NCBI RefSeq assembly: GCF_041886205.1
Contig: NZ_CP169030.1
DNA from: Escherichia coli
Lineage (GTDB): Bacteria; Pseudomonadota; Gammaproteobacteria; Enterobacterales; Enterobacteriaceae
Length of the DNA: 64,000 nt
Direction: 5' to 3' (one strand)
Within the stretch, counting starts at the first letter, position 1. Every line of letters starts with the position of its first letter. Both the position numbers and the translations under genes were made by a program. Shown here piece after piece: positions 39,459 to 54,206 of the stretch. The notes under the pieces are model-generated. The model did not search any database, had not been told where the DNA came from, and saw only the letters and a list, made by a program, of their open reading frames with translations.

Positions 39459-39842
39459 TTATTCATCATCATTTTTTGGAAAAAATCGTTCCATCTCAGA
39501 TGATACCTTCTCCCTGATATCTTCAACCATATTGGCATATTCAAACTTTGGATTTCCGGAGACATGAGGACTGAGAGACTCAATACCCAAAATTTTCGCT
39601 ACTGATGATTGTGTTTTTACAACGCATTCAAGAAGCAATTTATTAAACTCAGTCTGATTAAATGCAGACTCTTTACGCTCCATCTGAGCCTCATGTACAC
39701 GAAGCCCCAGTTCAAGAAGCATTGAAGCTGTTGCTGAAAAACTGACATCTTTTTCCCTTGCCCCTTCCTGTCGACGCTTCTCAATAATCGCATTTATTTT
39801 TTCATAGGCATCATTGCTGATATACAGGTTCACCTTAGCCAT
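39459..39842 (-). CDS. traM: TraM relaxosome accessory protein
   Basis: 127 aa, F TraM sequence. Confidence 0.95.
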   Translation of the reverse strand: MAKVNLYISNDAYEKINAIIEKRRQEGAREKDVSFSATASMLLELGLRVHEAQMERKESAFNQTEFNKLLLECVVKTQSSVAKILGIESLSPHVSGNPKFEYANMVEDIREKVSSEMERFFPKNDDE

Positions 39843-39849
39843 TAGAGAT

Positions 39850-40250
39850 TACCTTTTTTGAACATAAAATAAAGTTAATTTCGAAACACTAAAATTCATA
39901 ATGCAAACAGGGACGCACCGCTAGCAGCGCCCCTAGCGGTATCCTATAAAAAAACACACCGCGCCGCTAGCAGCACCCCTAATATAAAATAATGTTTTTT
40001 ATAAAAATAGTCAGTACCACCCCTACAAAACGGTGTCGGCGCGTTGTTGTAGCCGCGCCGACACCGCTTTTTTAAATATCATAAAGAGAGTAAGAGAAAC
40101 TAATTTTTCATAACACTCTATTTATAAAGAAAAATCAGCAAAAACTTGTTTTTGCGTGGGGTGTGGTGCTTTTGGTGGTGAGAACCATCAACCTGTTGAG
40201 CCTTTTTGTGGAGTGGGTTAAATTATTTCCTGATGACGTCACCAGAGGTG
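39850..40250. other. oriT: oriT, with F-type nic motif TTTGCGTGGGGTGT|GGTGCTTTTGGTGGTGAG (nic about 40164/40165) and TraM/IHF/TraY binding-region repeats
   Basis: Nic-site consensus of F; imperfect repeats GCACCGCTAGCAGCGCCCC at about 39915-39980; perfect 12-bp IR at 40036-40069. Confidence 0.85.
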
Positions 40251-40255
40251 AGAAA

Positions 40256-40765
40256 ATGAGAAAATGGCTTCTAACGATCTGCCTGATGTTTATAAATGTG
40301 ACCTGCAAGGCTGGTGATTGCTTTGATCTTGCAGGTCGGGATTACAAAATAGACCCTGACTTGCTGAGAGCGATATCATGGAAAGAATCCCGTTACCGGG
40401 TTAATGCCATTGGTATTAATCCGGTAACGGGATATGGCAGCGGATTGATGCAGGTAGACTCCCAGCATTTTAACGAACTGGCCCGCTACGGCATTAAACC
40501 GGAACATCTGACAACAGATCCCTGCATGAACATTTATACCGGTGCTTATTATCTGGCTATAGCCTTTAAAAAATGGGGCGTCTCCTGGGAGGCCGTTGGT
40601 GCATACAACGCAGGATTCAGGAAAACCGAACGCCAGAACCAGCGGCGTCTTGCCTATGCATCAGATGTTTACCGGATTTACAGCGGGATAAAAAACAGTA
40701 AGGGGATCCAGCTTCGTGCATCTGAAAAACCGCTTTCAAAAATGAACAGCTCGCAGAAGAATTAA
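40256..40765 (+). CDS. Orf169 / gene X lytic transglycosylase (P19/IagB family)
   Basis: 169 aa, signal peptide, SLT catalytic motif …AISWKESRY…. Confidence 0.9.
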
Positions 40766-41022
40766 TTTGATATACATTTTAAAAAACCGGTTATGCCGCA
40801 AACGCGGCATGGAAGGCCACACACAAAAATATCATATGAGTGATAATGCTGACTGGCCGAAGCCCCGCAAAGCGGGAACCCATCTTATATATATCCGGTA
40901 ACTGCGCAGCCTCCTGCCAGACCATTTTTCGCGGGCACAATATTTACAGACTACCGAAAAGCCAGTTGATGAAATTGAGGCATCTCAGACGACATATCAA
41001 TGCCGCATAATGATAATATAAG

Positions 41023-41050
41023 TAAAGCCCCGAAAATTTTTCGGGGCTTT
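41023..41050. terminator. Bidirectional rho-independent terminator AAAGCCCCGAAAATTTTTCGGGGCTTT
   Basis: Perfect hairpin flanked by A-run and T-run between convergent genes. Confidence 0.7.
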
Positions 41051-41060
41051 ACTTATATTA

Positions 41061-41882
41061 TCATGACTTCCACTCCCTGAACTGTTCGGCAATCATCCAT
41101 AATGCTTTGTTGATTCGGATATCACCATCAATACCCGTAATGGCTCTTGTCCTGGTATTTTTACCGGAGGCACTTCGCCCCGACAGTCCACCTTTTATCA
41201 TATTCTCCTGAACCCGCTGCCAGGTTGTCCAGAGATCGTTCTGTTTATCCTCCCAACGACGGGGAGTAATTATTTGTTCAGGCGTCACTGGTGTTTTATT
41301 TTCATCTTCATACCTGACCATCAATGCAGCTCTGCCAAATAAATGTTGCTCGTCACTGTTAAGATGTATTTCTTTCATCGCCTCCATATTATCAGTAACC
41401 TTATCAAAGACACCGAGCACTTCATACGCACCCTCGATAACCTGCCCGACAATATCACCTTTATGTGGAACGCGGATTTCGCCAAAATTATTTCCGCACA
41501 CCAGACCATTTGTGCAGACAAAACGAAAAATTCCGGGGATCATCTGATAACTGGATGAACCATCATGTGAATTAAGCAGGATAATTTCAGGAACTTCTTT
41601 CCCGTTAATATTCCCTTCCCTGCGAAGACGTAACATATGTTTACTGTATTCGCGGCGTCCCAAATCGCGAACCCGACTCTGACAGGCAAAGAACGGCTGG
41701 AAACCTTCATCACGTAACTTATTGATGATATTAATGGTTGGAATATATGTATAACGCTCACTCCGGGATTCATGTTTATCACCGGAAAAGACAGACGGCA
41801 CAAACTGCATTAATTCATCATCCGTTAAAGGACGCTCACGGCGAATGGAATTATACCGACCAAAACGGGAAGCTAATCGCAT
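41061..41882 (-). CDS. Orf273, conserved leading-region protein (DUF932-like), function unknown
   Basis: 273 aa, matches the recalled size and position of F orf273. Confidence 0.75.
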   Translation of the reverse strand: MRLASRFGRYNSIRRERPLTDDELMQFVPSVFSGDKHESRSERYTYIPTINIINKLRDEGFQPFFACQSRVRDLGRREYSKHMLRLRREGNINGKEVPEIILLNSHDGSSSYQMIPGIFRFVCTNGLVCGNNFGEIRVPHKGDIVGQVIEGAYEVLGVFDKVTDNMEAMKEIHLNSDEQHLFGRAALMVRYEDENKTPVTPEQIITPRRWEDKQNDLWTTWQRVQENMIKGGLSGRSASGKNTRTRAITGIDGDIRINKALWMIAEQFREWKS

Positions 41883-41992
41883 AACAGTAACTCCTTTATG
41901 AAGGTATAAAATTAATAAAAATTTTTTCGCGTAATATCATCCTCCCTCGGTTATCATTAACAATAAGATAACAATTCCGAGGGAAAGGACCA

Positions 41993-42289
41993 TCAAATCA
42001 GGTCAGTTCGGGACTGACCAACCTGCCGGGTGAAAAGCAGTAACAGCGCGATCAGCTCATCAGCGTTTTTTCTGACAAGAGGGGTATGATTCTCCAGGCT
42101 ATCCAGTAAGTCATGCAGCTCATTATTGACCTGGTGGAGCACCTTAAAAAGCGCCCCTGAATCCTGGTTGCTCTGATAGGCGAGACTGGCCTTAACAGCG
42201 TTATTCTGCATGATCCCGATTTGTGCGATTGCGTCTTTCTGCTGATCGCCTGTTGGCTGATAAGTGGTGTTAAAAGAAAATGCGCTCAT
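41993..42289 (-). CDS. Conserved leading-region small protein (orf95-like), function unknown; first gene after repeat A
   Basis: 98 aa; SD AGGAG; paralog of 43829-44074 (shared GDQQKDAIxQIxIMQ motif). Confidence 0.7.
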   Translation of the reverse strand: MSAFSFNTTYQPTGDQQKDAIAQIGIMQNNAVKASLAYQSNQDSGALFKVLHQVNNELHDLLDSLENHTPLVRKNADELIALLLLFTRQVGQSRTDLI

Positions 42290-42309
42290 GTTTCATTCTC
42301 CTGTGTCTG

Positions 42310-43030
42310 ATGTTTTCAGCCCCCATCATCTGTTGAGTTTCGGGAGCCGCGGTTTTGACGTTTTGCGGGGACCTGCTCTTTGCTCCCTCCGGTATTCACC
42401 ATCACCTGTTTGAGAACCTTCGCCGCATGGGGCATCACTGCCACGGCCGGAAACGACTGTCCGGGGGCAGACCGCAAAAGTTTTTGCCTGCTTTTGGGCA
42501 AAAAGTTTTGCGGGATGTGCATTTCACCCCTGGACTGGCGGAGACGGTTGTGGCTGTCTATGCCCCCGGCGACAGGGGCTTAAACAGGTGAATCGCACCG
42601 GACAGAACAACGGGCAGGGACCCGCCGCAACGACGTGAAGCGCGGTTTGCGAAACGGCGTTGCTCCTTACATCCCGGCGTCTTTTTGCCGGGATGCCGGG
42701 AGCGCAGGTCACGGCGCGACAAGGGTGGCGCGACCGTTCCGGTCGCTGAAAACCCGGGTTTTTGCGTCAGGGATGGAAGCCGCCAGGGCGGAGACAGCTC
42801 CGCTGGCTCCGTTCACGACAGCCCGCCCCGCCAGGGGGACGCCCGGAAAAGGCACTGCCAGGAGAACAACAAAACAGAGAGTAATCAGAGCAGCAGAAAA
42901 AAGAAGAACAGTAGCAGGAACCGCAACATCATCAGTAACAGACAAATGACAGGTCTGAAAAGACAGAAGCCCACAGCAGAACGTCCGCGTAATGAAAGGG
43001 GCGGCGCGTCAGCGCGGCCTTTTTTACCAG
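42310..43030 (-). repeat. Leading-region structured repeat copy A (candidate ssDNA promoter, Frpo/ssi-like)
   Basis: One of four direct copies; extensive dyad symmetry; abuts RBS of 41993-42289. Confidence 0.6.
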
Positions 43031-43066: not shown

Positions 43067-43381
43067 CTACAGCGCTGCCAGTTCATTCAGGATATGGGGG
43101 TTTCGCTCAACCATTTTCATCAGCAGGATGGCTTGTTTATTAGGTTTAGCCAGTCCCTGCTCCCAGTTCTGCAGGGTAGTGACGCCGGTATGTAAATACT
43201 GTGCGAAAACAGCCTGTGATAGCTTCAATTTTTCGCGTACCGCTTTCACCTCATCGGGCGTCATAGTGACGGGTTTTGCGCTGACCTTGTGTGTTCTCAA
43301 AGTTTTTTTGCCAGCATTAAACTCTCCCCACGCAGCCATGCCTTCCTGCAATTCGCTAAAAATATCACGATCTTTCATCAA
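43067..43381 (-). CDS. HigA-like HTH (XRE-family) antitoxin
   Basis: 104 aa with C-terminal HTH; 4-nt overlap (ATGA) with upstream toxin gene. Confidence 0.75.
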   Translation of the reverse strand: MMKDRDIFSELQEGMAAWGEFNAGKKTLRTHKVSAKPVTMTPDEVKAVREKLKLSQAVFAQYLHTGVTTLQNWEQGLAKPNKQAILLMKMVERNPHILNELAAL

Positions 43382-43716
43382 CGCCCCCTTCGTCTGGCCT
43401 GTTCAAGCATTTCGCGTAAAATATCGCGCTGTGCTTTCGTCAAATCATCTTTCTGGTCTTTGTCATACAGGGTGAACAACAGAAAGTGGGATTTTTCCAG
43501 ATACCAGTAGTAAATCACTCTGATGCCGCCGCGTTTCCCCTTGTTACGCCTTGCATCCCCAAACCGTACCTTGCGCAATCCCCCGGTATGCTGGATAACA
43601 TCACCGCATAACGGATTTTTCAGCAACATCTGCTGAAACTCCCGAAACTCATCATCCGTGAAATATTCAGCACGATGCCGCTCGAACGGCGGCAACTCGA
43701 CAAATAGTGCTTCCAT
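43378..43716 (-). CDS. HigB/RelE-superfamily toxin (addiction-module killer protein)
   Basis: 112 aa with …KGKRGGIRVIYYW…LLFTLYDKDQKDDLT… motif typical of HigB-like toxins; toxin-first gene order. Confidence 0.75.
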   Translation of the reverse strand: MEALFVELPPFERHRAEYFTDDEFREFQQMLLKNPLCGDVIQHTGGLRKVRFGDARRNKGKRGGIRVIYYWYLEKSHFLLFTLYDKDQKDDLTKAQRDILREMLEQARRRGR

Positions 43717-43828: not shown

Positions 43829-44074
43829 TCAGAAGTTCCAGCCCATCCGCTTTTTTTTGAAAACGGCTGTATGTGAAACCATCGCATCGATCAGTGCATC
43901 AAGCTCTGCGCGGAGCTCCAGTATCCTGGTTGTAAACGTATTTTTGCCCTGGCTGGTCATCCAGTTTAAATATGCCTGTACCGCGCGTTCCTGCATGATT
44001 TCGATTTGGGTAATAGCATCTTTTTGCTGATCGCCAGCAGATTTAAAATTTTTTCTGAAAACAAATGCCCCCAT
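43829..44074 (-). CDS. Hypothetical small protein, paralog of 41993-42289
   Basis: 81 aa sharing GDQQKDAI(A/T)QI(G/E)IMQ motif. Confidence 0.55.
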   Translation of the reverse strand: MGAFVFRKNFKSAGDQQKDAITQIEIMQERAVQAYLNWMTSQGKNTFTTRILELRAELDALIDAMVSHTAVFKKKRMGWNF

Positions 44075-44142
44075 TTTAATTTCTCCTGTGTTCTGTAATA
44101 CCTGGATATCCGGGTAAAGGGGCGTTTACGCCCCCCGCTGAT

Positions 44143-44475
44143 TTACATGTTCTGCTCGCTATGTATTCTTCTATTCACAATTGAAAATAAATGTTTTTTT
44201 TGCGATATCACTTTTCTTTTTATAATTCGCACAATTTCAGGCATCGACTTGTTCAGGGGGATCCATGCAGTATCCCCGTTCAGTTCATCATATACACACC
44301 CATAGATATGAAGCATTCCGTTCATTACAAAGCAGTACATTGAAAAATGTTCATATTTTTTCTCCGCACTGATTAACTGAAAATAACCTTTTATTAAACC
44401 CTGTTTCGGTGAAGGATTAATTAACCAGCCATTATCCAAAGATAAACAAATATGCTCAATTATTTTCTTTTCCAT
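44143..44475 (-). CDS. Hypothetical protein in low-GC segment
   Basis: 110 aa ORF, AT-rich island, followed by hairpin terminator at about 44100-44125. Confidence 0.45.
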   Translation of the reverse strand: MEKKIIEHICLSLDNGWLINPSPKQGLIKGYFQLISAEKKYEHFSMYCFVMNGMLHIYGCVYDELNGDTAWIPLNKSMPEIVRIIKRKVISQKKHLFSIVNRRIHSEQNM

Positions 44476-44529
44476 ATTTACTCCAACGAAAGCTTTATCC
44501 TAATTAATGGGGCATTGCCGCCCCTTGTG

Positions 44530-44799
44530 TTAAATGGCGTAGCCTCTTATCTGACTCAAAAACTGTTTGAAGTGATCAGCTTCCGCAATGTTGATATGGC
44601 GGAACTGCGTATCCACACCCCGGCTGAGCGCGTAGCTATAGCTGAAAGCCATCTTTTCCGGGTGGCTTTTGCGATATTTTTTCAGCTCATTCAGACTGCT
44701 GAACTCCAGGAGGTCCCACTCTTCTCGGGTGTTTTTTTTCTTTTCGGCAACAAGAAGCGTGTACGACGCGGTGTTAACGTGGATATTTCGGGTACTCAT
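44530..44799 (-). CDS. Hypothetical protein, first gene after repeat B
   Basis: 89 aa; SD upstream abutting repeat B. Confidence 0.5.
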   Translation of the reverse strand: MSTRNIHVNTASYTLLVAEKKKNTREEWDLLEFSSLNELKKYRKSHPEKMAFSYSYALSRGVDTQFRHINIAEADHFKQFLSQIRGYAI

Positions 44800-44814
44800 C
44801 CTGCTTTCTCCTCT

Positions 44815-45420
44815 CTCTGGTTTTCAGCCCCCATCATCTTTTGAGTTTCGGGAGCCGCGGTTTTGACGTTTTGCGGGGACCTGCCTTTTGTTCCCTCCGG
44901 TATTAACCATCACCTTTTTGAGAACCTTCGCCGCAAGGGGCATCACTGCCACGGCCTGACGCACCTGTCCTGGGCAGAACGCAAAATTTTTTACCGGGTT
45001 CTGGGTAAAAAATTTTGTGGGCTGTTCATTTACCCTGGACAGTCAGTGCGGCAGGTTGTGGCTGTATCAGCCCCCGGCGACAGGGGCTTAAACAGGTGTA
45101 TGGCACCGGACACAACAACGGGCAGGGACCCGCCGCAACGACGTGAAGCGCGGTTTGCGAAACGGCGTTGCCCCTTACATCCCGGCGGCCTTTTGCCGGG
45201 ATGCCGGGAGCGCAGGCCACGGCGCGACAGAGGCGGCGCGACCGGAACGGTCGCTGCAAGCCCGGGGTTTCGCGTCAGGGATGGAAGCCCGCCAGGGCGG
45301 AGACAGCTCCGCTGGCTCCGTTCACGACAGCCCGCCCCGCCAGGGGGACGCCCGGAAAAGGCATAAGCAGGAGAACAACAAAACAGACAATAATCAGGGC
45401 AGCAGTAATCAGAGTCAGAA
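44815..45420 (-). repeat. Leading-region structured repeat copy B
   Basis: Direct copy of repeats A/C/D. Confidence 0.6.
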
Positions 45421-45697
45421 CAGGAGGAAAAAGAGAATAATCAAAGGGAAGGTGATGTGATTTCTGACAGGTCATAAACAGAGAAGGCGGGGGAAAAGAA
45501 CGGGCGCCGCAGGCGCACGTTCATCCCCGTTCCCGGAGGGAAACGGCCTTCCTGGCAGTCTGGTTGTTCATGCCCGTACAATGCCAGCAAGGAGAAAGGG
45601 GCCACCGGCGAACCAGCAGCCCCTTTATAAAGGCGCTTCAGTGCAGTCAGACCAGCATCAGCCCTGAAAAGGCGGGCCTGCGCCCGCCTCCAGGTTG

Positions 45698-45856
45698 CTA
45701 CTTACCGGATTCGTAAGCCATGAAAGCCGCCACCTCCCTGTATCCGTCTCTGTAACGAATCTCGCACAGCGATTTTCGTGTCAGATAAGTGAATATCAAC
45801 AGTGTGAGACACACGATCAACACACACCAGACAAGAGAGCTGCGTGGTAGTTTCAT
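45698..45856 (-). CDS. hok: Hok-family toxin (flmA/hok) with overlapping mok-like ORF to 45997
   Basis: 52 aa [52 protein letters not shown]; hairpin terminator 45668-45690. Confidence 0.9.
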
Positions 45857-46130
45857 GGCCTTCTTCTCCTTGCGCAAAGCGCGGTAAGAGGCTATCCTGA
45901 TGTTGTCTAAGCATGCAGGGGCCTCGTGGGTTAATGAAAAATTAACTACGGGGCTTTTGTCCTTCTGCCACACAACACGGCAACAAACCACCTTCACGTC
46001 ATGAGGCAGAAAGCCTCAAGCGCCGGGTACATCATAGCCCATATCCCTGCACGCTGACCACACTCACTTTTCCTGAAAATAACCCGCTCACTCAGGCTGT
46101 TTACGGGTAATCTGTGTGATTGTTGCCGCA

Positions 46131-46849
46131 TCACGCTGCCTCCCGGAGTTTGTTCGGCACCATCCACCGCTCCATCTCACGGACAGCGTGACCGGCCTCT
46201 CTTGCTGCAAGACTGGCTTCCGCAATAACCTGCCAGAACGGCATATCCTGCCACTGCCAGCGTTCCATTCCGGCCAGTGACGGAAAACGCTCGCCCCACT
46301 GCCAGAACAGGGTTTCCAGGTCATGCTCTGCCACCCGGTCACTCCAGCGTGCATGCCAGCTTCCGACTGTTTCCGGCGAATGGAATGCCAGTTCGATTTC
46401 AGCCTGAGCGACCAGCGCCTGGTACGCACGGGCTTTCTGCTCTGCCTCCCGTGCCTGCTGGCGGCTGTACTTCTGCATGACCAGCGCGGATTTATGGCGA
46501 CTGCGCTCCCTGACACGAAACCGCACCGACGGAAACAACCGCTCTGCTGCATCACCAGGAAGGGGAAGGAGGCAGACCTCGCCCTGTGTTTCAATCAGCA
46601 CATCGATGGCATACAGCCACTGAAGACGGTTGCCGTGCAGTTCTTCTGCGGTCAGGGACGGCATGAAAAATCGCAGGTCAGACAGCGATATCCTGCGGCT
46701 TCCGTTCAGACAGCGGAAAAACGCCCCCGCATACGGATATTCGCCAGCGTGTTACCCTGATGGCGGCGTTTTTCTGTCTCCGCCACCGCCCGCCATGCGG
46801 CCTGTTGCTCTGTGCTGAGGGGAACCAGTGCCTGTGAACGTACGCTCAT
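46131..46849 (-). pseudogene. psiA: psiA (plasmid SOS inhibition A), apparent frameshift near 46742
   Basis: N-terminal 36 codons ([43 protein letters not shown]) are in a different frame from the remaining PsiA body (from …EYPYAGAFFRCLNG…). Confidence 0.7.
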
Positions 46850-50186: not shown

Positions 50187-50204
50187 GATGTGTCTCCTTC
50201 TGTT

Positions 50205-50930
50205 GATGTTTTCAGCCCCCATCATCTGTTGAGTTTCGGGAGCCGCGGTTTTGACGTTTTGCGGGAACCTGCTGCTGTATTCCCTGTGGTATGAACTTCA
50301 CCCGTTTGAGAACCTTCGCCGCAAGGGGCATCACTGCCACGGCCTGACGCCCCTGTCCTGGGCAGAACGCAAAATTTTTTACCGGGTTCTGGGTAAAAAA
50401 TTTTGTGGGCTGTTCATTTACCCTGGACAGTCAGTGCGGCAGGTTGTGGCTGTATCAGCCCCCGGCGACAGGGGCTTAAACAGGTGAATGGCACCGGACA
50501 CAACAACGGGCAGGGACCCGCCGCAACGACGTGAAGCGCGGTTTGCGAAACGGCGTTGCGCCTCACATCCCGGCGGCCTTTTGCCGGGATGCCAGGAGCG
50601 CAGGCCACGGCGCGACAGAGGCGGCGCGACCGGAACGGTCGCTGCAAGCCAGGGTTTCGCGTCAGGGATGGAAGCCCGCCAGGGCGGAGACAGCTTCGCT
50701 GGCTCCGTTCACGACAGCCCGCCCCGCCAGGGGGACGCCCGGAAAAGGCATAAGCAGGAGAACAACAAAACAGACAGTAATCAGAGCAGCAGAAAAAAGA
50801 AGAACAGGAGCAGTAGCAGGAACAACATCATCAGTAACAGACAAATGACAGGTCTGAAAAGACAGAAGCCCACAGCAGAATGTCCACGTAATGTAAGGGG
50901 CGGCGCGTCAGCGCGGCCCCTTTCACGCCA
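50205..50930 (-). repeat. Leading-region structured repeat copy C (immediately upstream of ssb)
   Basis: Direct copy; abuts ssb RBS. Confidence 0.6.
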
Positions 50931-53014: not shown

Positions 53015-53245
53015 TCAGTTAAAAGCGCGTTTCAGTTCGAGTGTGCGGAGCACCTGCCCGAAGGCCGTGTTTTTCATGGCGGGGATGTGTACACCACGCC
53101 CCCGGTGAAAACTCCTGGCAATGTGTCGTCCGAAGGCTTTCAGCACGGGGTCAATTTCCGGCGCGGGGATGTCTTCGCGTCTGAAACGGGGATGACGGCG
53201 GGGCTTTACAGCCGCTGCGGAAGGTGAAACAATACTTACTGTCAT
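53015..53245 (-). CDS. Hypothetical basic small protein, first ORF after repeat D
   Basis: 76-aa ORF. Confidence 0.35.
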   Translation of the reverse strand: MTVSIVSPSAAAVKPRRHPRFRREDIPAPEIDPVLKAFGRHIARSFHRGRGVHIPAMKNTAFGQVLRTLELKRAFN

Positions 53246-53479
53246 AATTTAGCCTCTTATGACGTTAATTAATGAAACCGTAAAGACTGTTCGTGCAGTC
53301 TCTGCGGTGTGGATTAAGCAGGTCCCTGACCTGCTTTTTTCATATCTGCATCTGACGCTTTCCGGTGTTTTCCTCCTTCTGTTCCTGCGTTCTCATTACC
53401 TGCCAGCCGGATGACTGACAGAACAAATAAATGCGTATTGCCGGAGCCTGAAATAAATCCTGATTTTTAAAGAACATCA

Positions 53480-54010
53480 CCCGTTGAGTTTCGGGAGCCG
53501 CGGTTTTGACGTTTCGCGGGAACCTGCTGCTGTATTCCCTGTGGTATGAACTTCACCCGTTTGAGAACCTTCGCCGCAAGGGGCATCACTGCCACGGCCT
53601 GACGCACCTGTCCTGGGCAGAACGCAAAATTTTTTACCGGGTTTTGGGTAAAAAATTTTGTGGGCTGTTCATTTACCCTGGACAGTCAGTGCGGCAGGTT
53701 GTGGCTGTATCAGCCCCCGGCGACAGGGACTCATACGGGTGTGTGGCACCCGGCAGGCAATGAGCAGGGACCCGCTGCAACGACGTGAAGCGCGGTTTGC
53801 GAAACGGCGTTGCTCCTTACATCCCGGCGGCCTTTTGCCGGGATGCCAGGAGCGCAGGCCACGGCGCGACAAGGGCGGCGCGACCGTTCCGGTCGCTGCA
53901 AGCCGGGGGTTTTGCGTCAGGGATGAAAGCCCGCCAGGGCGGAGACAGCTCCGCTGGCTCCGTTCACGACAGCCCGCCCCGCCAGGGGGACGCCCGGGAA
54001 AGCCATAAAC
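53480..54010 (-). repeat. Leading-region structured repeat copy D
   Basis: Direct copy (left end diverged). Confidence 0.6.
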
Positions 54011-54206
54011 AGGAGAGGAACGGAAAGAAGAGGAAGAAGAACAGTAACCACAGAAACATAACATCAGGAAAAAACATTCCGGACACATCACAAACGGGAA
54101 GGGAAGCGGGCGACGCGCCAGCGTGGCCCGCTTCCCTTCCGGCAGGCGCCAGCCTGCCAGGGGTTTTCGCGCGGGCTGACAGGCGGCCTCCACCGCCTGC
54201 CCTGTA

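Follow-up and report, generated by a model that had tools for sequence, protein, structure and literature searches.

The closest described relative of the locus studied here is the early operon of plasmid F, in which the single-stranded-DNA promoter Frpo1 lies upstream of ygeA and ygeB (Masai & Arai 1997; PMC9849209). In F transconjugants, YgeA-sfGFP appears before the plasmid becomes double-stranded and requires Frpo1, that is, it is produced early and from single-stranded DNA (PMC9849209; also PMC12672017). Deletion of ygeA brings conjugation down to about 4% and is worse than deletion of Frpo1 itself, while ygeB could not be deleted alone (PMC9849209). More generally, leading regions are hotspots of anti-defence genes with single-stranded-DNA promoters, often accompanied by higBA (Samuel et al. 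2024, PMC11541004). Here, we compare with these systems a 64,000-nt stretch of Escherichia coli contig NZ_CP169030.1 (hereafter, the window), and in particular two adjacent open reading frames (ORFs) of its minus strand, ORF89 (44530-44799, 89 aa) and ORF110 (44143-44475, 110 aa). A first-pass annotation made from the sequence alone had placed both ORFs at these coordinates, directly downstream of a repeat (repeat B), as is confirmed here, and had taken them for a single module. Our results show that ORF89 is a known core gene, whereas ORF110 is a new uncharacterised gene in a known class of leading-region cargo.

The window corresponds to an IncF-type, F-like (MOBF/MPF_F) conjugative plasmid. 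Repeat B (44805-45400, plus strand), which stands upstream of ORF89, ORF110 and the genes that follow, is by homology and predicted folding the orthologue of the class 1 single-stranded-DNA promoter Frpo1. Positions 44549-46200 are collinear with, and 95.8% identical to, the 64.0-65.6 kb stretch of F, which contains the 95-aa gene, Frpo1 and flm/hok. Folded as single-stranded DNA, repeat B gave a long hairpin of -162.6 kcal/mol, as compared with -115 kcal/mol for shuffled sequences (z = -11.2). Both homology to a characterised Frpo and a stable long stem-loop in the transferred strand were thus found for this repeat. The start codon of ORF89 is only 6 nt from its edge, and the promoter scan disclosed no sigma-70-like promoter between ORF89 and ORF110. 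On the basis of a leading-region gene order that agrees with those of F and of IncFII plasmids, we take the plus strand to be the transferred one, its entry into the recipient starting at about 40,000 and proceeding rightwards. This strand is the template for all the minus-strand genes of the leading region, including ORF89 and ORF110, which adjoin the origin of transfer (oriT, at about 40,000), lie between it and hok/psiAB, and are co-oriented with psiB and ssb (the order being traM, oriT, SLT, DUF932 ... hok, psiA, psiB, parB-like, ssb as in F).

The ORF89 product was 93% identical to the 95-aa protein of F (WP_000107542) over 85 aa (residues 1-85), and its gene is likewise the first after Frpo1, so that both similarity and position assign it to the YgeA/F orf95 family. 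Gene order and the naming scheme lead us to infer that the F 95-aa gene is ygeA. The guanine-plus-cytosine (GC) content of ORF89 is 47.4% (61% at third codon positions, GC3), which falls at the 25th percentile of the window and resembles that of the neighbouring genes, and DNA of the ORF89 region was present in at least 5000 plasmid records. Considering this distribution, the ordinary GC content and the identity to a gene that natively follows Frpo1, ORF89 is the resident first gene of the Frpo1 operon and not acquired cargo. The family comprised 133 homologue clusters, mostly annotated as "hypothetical" and none carrying its own Pfam domain; searches of Pfam, NCBIfam, PHROGs and PADLOC gave no match for ORF89, and its AlphaFold model (predicted local distance difference test, pLDDT, 61) was too poor for a structure search. 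A few of the database names in its cluster pointed to a relationship with DUF905/YfjA, which was rejected (hhalign probability 3%). The likeness to the F operon (96% DNA identity for repeat B in addition to the protein identity of ORF89) extends to the position between hok/flm and the DUF932 gene and to the orientation relative to oriT. However, while ygeA in F is directly followed by ygeB (DUF932), the window has ORF110, ORF81, a HigBA-like pair, a second Frpo copy and ORF98 between them, and the C-terminus of its ygeA has been replaced.

ORF110 encodes a basic protein (isoelectric point, pI, 9.2) and stands as an AT-rich orphan forming a single-gene leading-region cassette. Its GC content is 33.0% (GC3 36%), a value as low as that found in only 0.9% of the 333-bp windows across the 64 kb (mean 52.3%, standard deviation 7.2%) and 14 points away from that of ORF89. 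A Shine-Dalgarno GGAG precedes the ATG by 5 nt, and the ratio of nonsynonymous to synonymous substitution rates was 0.14-0.38 against four homologues of 43-82% amino-acid identity. Moreover, AlphaFold yielded a confident model (pLDDT 91.8, predicted template modelling score 0.83) from only seven sequences. ORF110 is, therefore, a real gene under purifying selection. It is also a rare one. Megablast of 44080-44530 retrieved one PLSDB record, an IncK2/Z plasmid, and found the window arrangement in no complete E. coli genome, and tblastn detected homologues in 9 of 72,556 plasmids. Among 5.8 billion proteins, a profile search returned about 22 clusters (at 90% identity), against two for a single-sequence search, and every one came from E. 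coli or Salmonella. HMMER, run exhaustively over 1.84 billion representatives, recovered seven true relatives plus two spurious repeat proteins. All members of the family were low in GC (30-40%) and basic (pI 8.4-9.4). Several relatives were truncated or disrupted by IS66 (P0123, P0127, P0129, P0130 and P0195). We also observed that the homologue at L021:2560-2880 (P0123) and a ygeA homologue (P0046) bear an identical 24-residue N-terminus, MSIKNDGHYFCRAGGNRPDGLNEP. Since the former abuts an IS66 element, that fusion probably resulted from an IS66 insertion, which suggests that this part of leading regions is a target of IS66 insertions. At 294-2909, the window carries three successive minus-strand ORFs (523, 115 and 225 aa) that agree in size and order with the IS66 tnpC/tnpB/tnpA genes of loci L012 and L021, and are thus putative IS66 genes.

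The homology to F ends inside ORF89, at 44549, and the junction (44548/44549) marks the start of a 5' flank of the ORF110 cassette (44476-44548, minus strand) that holds the last six codons and stop of ORF89, a stem-loop (44509-44524) and the Shine-Dalgarno GGAG. This flank aligned with the DNA that precedes the ORF110 homologue of pECOED (NC_011754), and the aligned part takes in both AGAGGCTACGCCAT and a GGGGCGG-AA-GCCCC stem-loop. The protein ends agree with this picture: ORF89 terminates in QIRGYAI and the upstream ORF of pECOED in RGYAM, whereas the F counterpart ends in QIKRAGLDIRAIC (KRAGLDIRAIC). Taken together, the F breakpoint within ORF89, the pECOED alignment and the shared RGYA ends indicate that the cassette carried a 5' flank of its own on arrival and took the place of the final six ygeA codons; it is because of this junction that the last 4-10 residues of ORF89 differ from the F family. 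The 89-aa ygeA variant ending in RGYAI was counted on 84 contigs and ORF110 on 95, the longest contig being identical. In pECOED (L027), the ORF ending in RGYAM is an unannotated one of 46 aa (5794-5934) between an ssi-like hairpin and the ORF110 homologue, and may be either a real small gene or a remnant.

In every context with a contig long enough to judge, members of the ORF110 family were in a leading region and co-oriented with ssb, psiB, ardA or klcA. The first context is the IncF arrangement of the window. In the second, that of I-complex plasmids (NikA/NikB relaxase), the homologue is immediately preceded by an Frpo/ssi-like hairpin (z = -9.5 and -11.1) with sequence in common with the window repeat, and is followed by a 106-109-aa gene and then an Rpn nuclease; the homologue in L021 was likewise near nikA and a relaxase gene. 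In the third, found in Salmonella plasmids, it lies between klcA and a block made of a 76-aa gene, DUF3560, methyltransferase and ssb. None of the 106-, 109-, 125-, 76- and 46-aa neighbours was common to all contexts. Since the neighbours change from one context to another and the window lacks the 106-, 109- and 46-aa genes (the 76-aa family is present, but elsewhere than at ORF110), ORF110 has no obligate partner. The two-gene module proposed in the first-pass annotation is accordingly dissolved: ORF89 and ORF110 have separate histories and do not co-occur across genomes. The marked AT-richness that it attributed to the segment is a property of the low-GC trough at ORF110 and does not extend to ORF89. 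Similarly, the description as horizontally acquired cargo suits ORF110, an accessory gene with low-GC relatives in leading regions, but not a resident core gene such as ORF89, and the proposal that cargo had been placed under a leading-region repeat is retained for ORF110, downstream of the Frpo1 orthologue with no promoter between, while ORF89 is native to that position.

Two stem-loops follow the ORF110 stop codon on the minus strand (44099-44136). One, at 44117-44136, has a GC-rich stem of 8 bp; the other, at 44099-44116, is small. The former reads GGGGGGCG-UAAA-CGCCCCUU on the coding strand, and the whole region folds as RNA at -19.7 kcal/mol (z = -2.7). The first-pass annotation had ended the segment here with a hairpin terminator. 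Although the stem-loop is real, its tail is UUUACCC with no U-run, so that it has the stem of a Rho-independent terminator but not the U-tract, and the terminator scan of the minus (coding) strand did not call it. In addition, ORF81 (43829-44074, minus strand), which has a good Shine-Dalgarno, begins 45 nt further on in the same orientation and is succeeded by the HigBA-like pair; the segment, therefore, does not end at the hairpin, and these stem-loops would at most terminate transcription weakly or in part, or else stabilise the transcript. The other stem-loop, at 44509-44524, also lacks a U-tail, and the 54-nt gap between ORF89 and ORF110 in which it lies gave -12.9 kcal/mol (z = -1.3).

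The ORF110 model is that of a small alpha/beta protein with a helix, a five-stranded antiparallel sheet and two further helices. The best structural neighbours were Med14 (score 7.8), the FP dimerisation domain of Fbxo7/PI31 (7.2/6.4) and AmyR of the YbjN family (6.7), along with CapZ (6.7), many class I type III secretion chaperones (5.4-6.7) and PsiB (5.0). Foldseek against the PDB found only the Fbxo7 FP domain (E = 3e-3, template modelling score about 0.5), and no match was obtained in BFVD. These neighbours are protein-binding or dimerisation modules, and the predicted fold resembles them weakly: identity to the class I type III secretion chaperones, the YbjN family and the FP domains (Fbxo7/PI31) was 5-14%, and no CesT or YbjN hidden Markov model matched. 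The family has no conserved catalytic motif, its invariant residues being hydrophobic or Gly. A relationship with PsiB, the leading-region SOS inhibitor that binds RecA (PDB 3nct), was rejected (hhalign probability 0.2%); other unrelated folds outscored it against ORF110, and PsiB, unlike the rare and AT-rich ORF110, is conserved and has a high GC content.

On the basis of these data, we propose the following course of events. Once the transferred plus strand enters the recipient, repeat B would fold into a hairpin used by RNA polymerase, and transcription would run leftward through ORF89, the ancestral first gene of the operon, and into ORF110, which would be reached from repeat B with neither a promoter nor a convincing terminator intervening. 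ORF110 itself is a separately acquired AT-rich single-gene cassette that recombined, with its own upstream hairpin and ribosome-binding site, into the 3' end of ygeA. Its product would most likely be made transiently in the new host and bind and neutralise or redirect a host protein, be it a defence, a stress-response or an establishment factor. PsiB, which binds RecA, is the model for such a role, and by this analogy an early-made host-protein binder is our best guess for ORF110, a plausible anti-defence or establishment candidate. We believe this explanation (Frpo1-type promoter, ORF110 cassette and early host-protein binder) to be moderately probable as a whole. It can be extended to a bolder proposal, possible although in our opinion doubtful, by which the ORF110 family would be an unrecognised anti-defence or host-takeover protein whose cassette moves between the single-stranded-DNA-promoter operons of unrelated plasmids (MOBF IncF, MOBP I-complex and Salmonella plasmids), and which, made only in the single-stranded entry phase, would disable one particular immune or stress protein of E. 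coli or Salmonella by binding it directly through its chaperone/FP-like fold.

The comparison with known anti-defence islands is consistent with the proposed early role in that the window also has small genes near oriT that are transcribed from the transferred strand, Frpo-like promoters, psiAB, ssb, a methyltransferase and a higBA-type toxin-antitoxin pair, and in that many leading-region families are uncharacterised (PMC11541004). The locus is, moreover, in keeping with the zygotic induction picture (PMC12672017; bioRxiv 2026.01.09.698686). A preprint on YfjB/HerB, considered as a source on the locus, concerns the ParB-like gene and not ORF89/ORF110. Several observations, however, weigh against a host-protein binder with an anti-defence or establishment function. 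By sequence, ORF110 resembled none of the known families of anti-defence, defence, toxin or regulatory proteins in the profile libraries or the PDB: searches of Pfam, NCBIfam, PHROGs and PADLOC with ORF110, ORF89, ORF81 and ORF98 gave only sub-threshold noise (Cas6, E = 0.02; DRT, 0.017), a PDB sequence search with the profile of the ORF110 alignment gave nothing, and neither profiles nor solved structures matched it to annotated anti-defence families (ArdA, KlcA/ArdB, PsiB, Acr and others). Type III secretion chaperones are acidic. ORF110, in contrast, is basic, a charge equally compatible with nucleic-acid binding, and has no secretion system or effector partner nearby. Its peptide strings and names were not found in the supplementary text files of Samuel et al. 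(PMC11541004), which hold no sequences. Leading regions have been reported to be GC-rich and codon-adapted, a trend for which ORF110, with its low GC and poor codon fit, is atypical (bioRxiv 10.1101/2025.04.03.647016); this composition could reflect either a recent foreign origin or a maintained composition. Furthermore, induction on entry is not universal among leading-region genes (PMC12672017), and a gene found in so few plasmids must be dispensable for transfer.

Some of these observations lead to other explanations. The one that best survives is that ORF110 is a small basic nucleic-acid binder (acting on incoming single-stranded DNA or on the Frpo hairpin, as a transcription or translation regulator, or as a nucleoid-associated-like protein) and not an inhibitor of a host protein. 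The basic pI throughout the family is in line with it, as is the fact that the most conserved part of the protein is a Lys/Arg-rich C-terminal helix pair (RKVISQKK..NRR); the weak fold matches include a ribosome hibernation factor and ThermoDBP, and DNA-acting leading-region proteins do exist, namely SSB and the ParB-like HerB/YfjB (PMC13370423). Even so, we consider this role unlikely. ORF110 could also be a selfish or neutral hitch-hiker with no part in conjugation, an AT-rich foreign remnant spread by recombination between Frpo/ssi repeats, as its rarity, foreign composition and truncated or IS66-disrupted relatives, and the mosaic nature of the leading region, might lead one to think. This seems to us quite improbable, since purifying selection holds across homologues of 43-82% amino-acid identity, the full-length ORF and the fold are kept on three plasmid backbones, the gene always points the same way as the early genes, and it is repeatedly located downstream of single-stranded-DNA-promoter hairpins. 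Finally, that ORF89 and ORF110 are a functional toxin/antitoxin or toxin/immunity pair acquired as one cargo module, an alternative that goes back to the first-pass annotation and that the small size, adjacency and co-orientation of the two genes and the odd genetics of the F operon, with their hint of interactions, might encourage, is very improbable indeed, because ORF89 occurs in those thousands of plasmids without ORF110, the relatives of ORF110 on I-complex and Salmonella plasmids lack an ORF89 homologue and have varying neighbours, the F-type/cassette junction lies within the 3' end of ORF89, the GC contents of the two genes differ by 14 points, and neither protein matched a toxin, antitoxin or immunity model, the genuine toxin-antitoxin-like pair being the neighbouring HigB/HigA-like one at 43067-43716.

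That pair consists of a HigB/RelE-like toxin (43378-43716, minus strand; Pfam RelE E = 2.4e-4, below cutoff) and an MqsA/HigA-like helix-turn-helix antitoxin (43067-43381, minus strand; Pfam MqsA_antitoxin 3.9e-10, NCBIfam MqsA family 2e-14, below the curated cutoff). The two genes overlap by 4 nt and have a sigma-70-like promoter of their own (43778-43749; promoter scan 10/12). ORF81, the next gene after ORF110 in operon orientation, is a divergent paralogue of ORF98 (41993-42289), the R100-type first gene after Frpo1: the two are 39% identical and have in common a GDQQKDAI motif. Neither ORF81 nor ORF98 matched Pfam, NCBIfam, PHROGs or PADLOC, and the best plasmid homologue of ORF81 was 61% identical, its family occurring in 1755 PLSDB records. 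As to the remainder of the region, the minus-strand tra operon extends to traM (39459-39842), beyond which come oriT and then the SLT gene (40163-40765, plus strand). The minus-strand leading region starts with the DUF932 gene (41061-41882) and continues with ORF98, repeat A, the HigA/HigB-like pair, ORF81, ORF110, ORF89 and repeat B; then hok, psiA, psiB, the ParB-like gene (HerB/YfjB type), DUF905, ssb and repeat C; and finally a methyltransferase gene, DUF3560, a 76-aa gene and repeat D. The four repeats are 600-730 nt long and 70-98% identical to one another, and each Frpo/ssi class 1 copy sits immediately upstream of one minus-strand gene block: repeat A (42297-43027, plus strand) of ORF98-DUF932, repeat B of the genes discussed above, repeat C (50193-50926) of ssb-DUF905-parB-like-psiBA and repeat D (53448-54021) of 76aa-DUF3560-methyltransferase. 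Plasmid F is described with two named Frpo copies. Repeat A, the second Frpo-type copy, is predicted to drive ORF98 and the DUF932 gene, as in R100-type plasmids. The 76-aa gene (53015-53245) was 78% identical to the gene at L022:1277-1507, directly after an ORF110 homologue, and the Salmonella loci L028 (8419-8649) and L029 have a 76-aa gene in the same position, matched by length and position only. Small leading-region genes thus appear to recur in different orders.

The pieces of this array have different relatives. Positions 40901-42920 (DUF932, ORF98 and repeat A) were collinear with, and 93.5% identical to, IncFII plasmid AP028096, with ORF98 95% identical to its counterpart, and the HigBA-like block was 97% identical to one in plasmid CP182372, where it belongs to a different Frpo-punctuated multi-cassette array with an N6 DNA methylase. 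The simplest reading would be that the array arose by homologous recombination between the Frpo copies of different plasmids, which would stack units of promoter plus cargo; most likely, the block from repeat B to the HigBA-like pair would have been stacked in this way onto an R100-type unit (repeat A, ORF98 and DUF932). The four copies could mediate the stacking or the deletion of cassettes. The recombination potential of Frpo copies was already pointed out by Couturier et al. (PMC9849209).

The survival of a resistance or virulence plasmid in the first minutes after it enters a new host depends on its leading-region genes, most of which are of unknown function. ORF110 is one among hundreds of orphan leading-region families, exchanged between plasmid families and with an Frpo/ssi-type hairpin upstream where checked. 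As a single small gene with a confident predicted fold, under purifying selection and located in leading-region arrays, it is a tractable candidate for anti-defence screening. Should it block a host defence, ORF110 would represent a new family of inhibitors and an example of how Frpo repeats act both as promoters and as recombination joints for cargo swaps. Should it have no measurable effect, the locus would be one more instance of the mosaicism already known from IncF leading regions.
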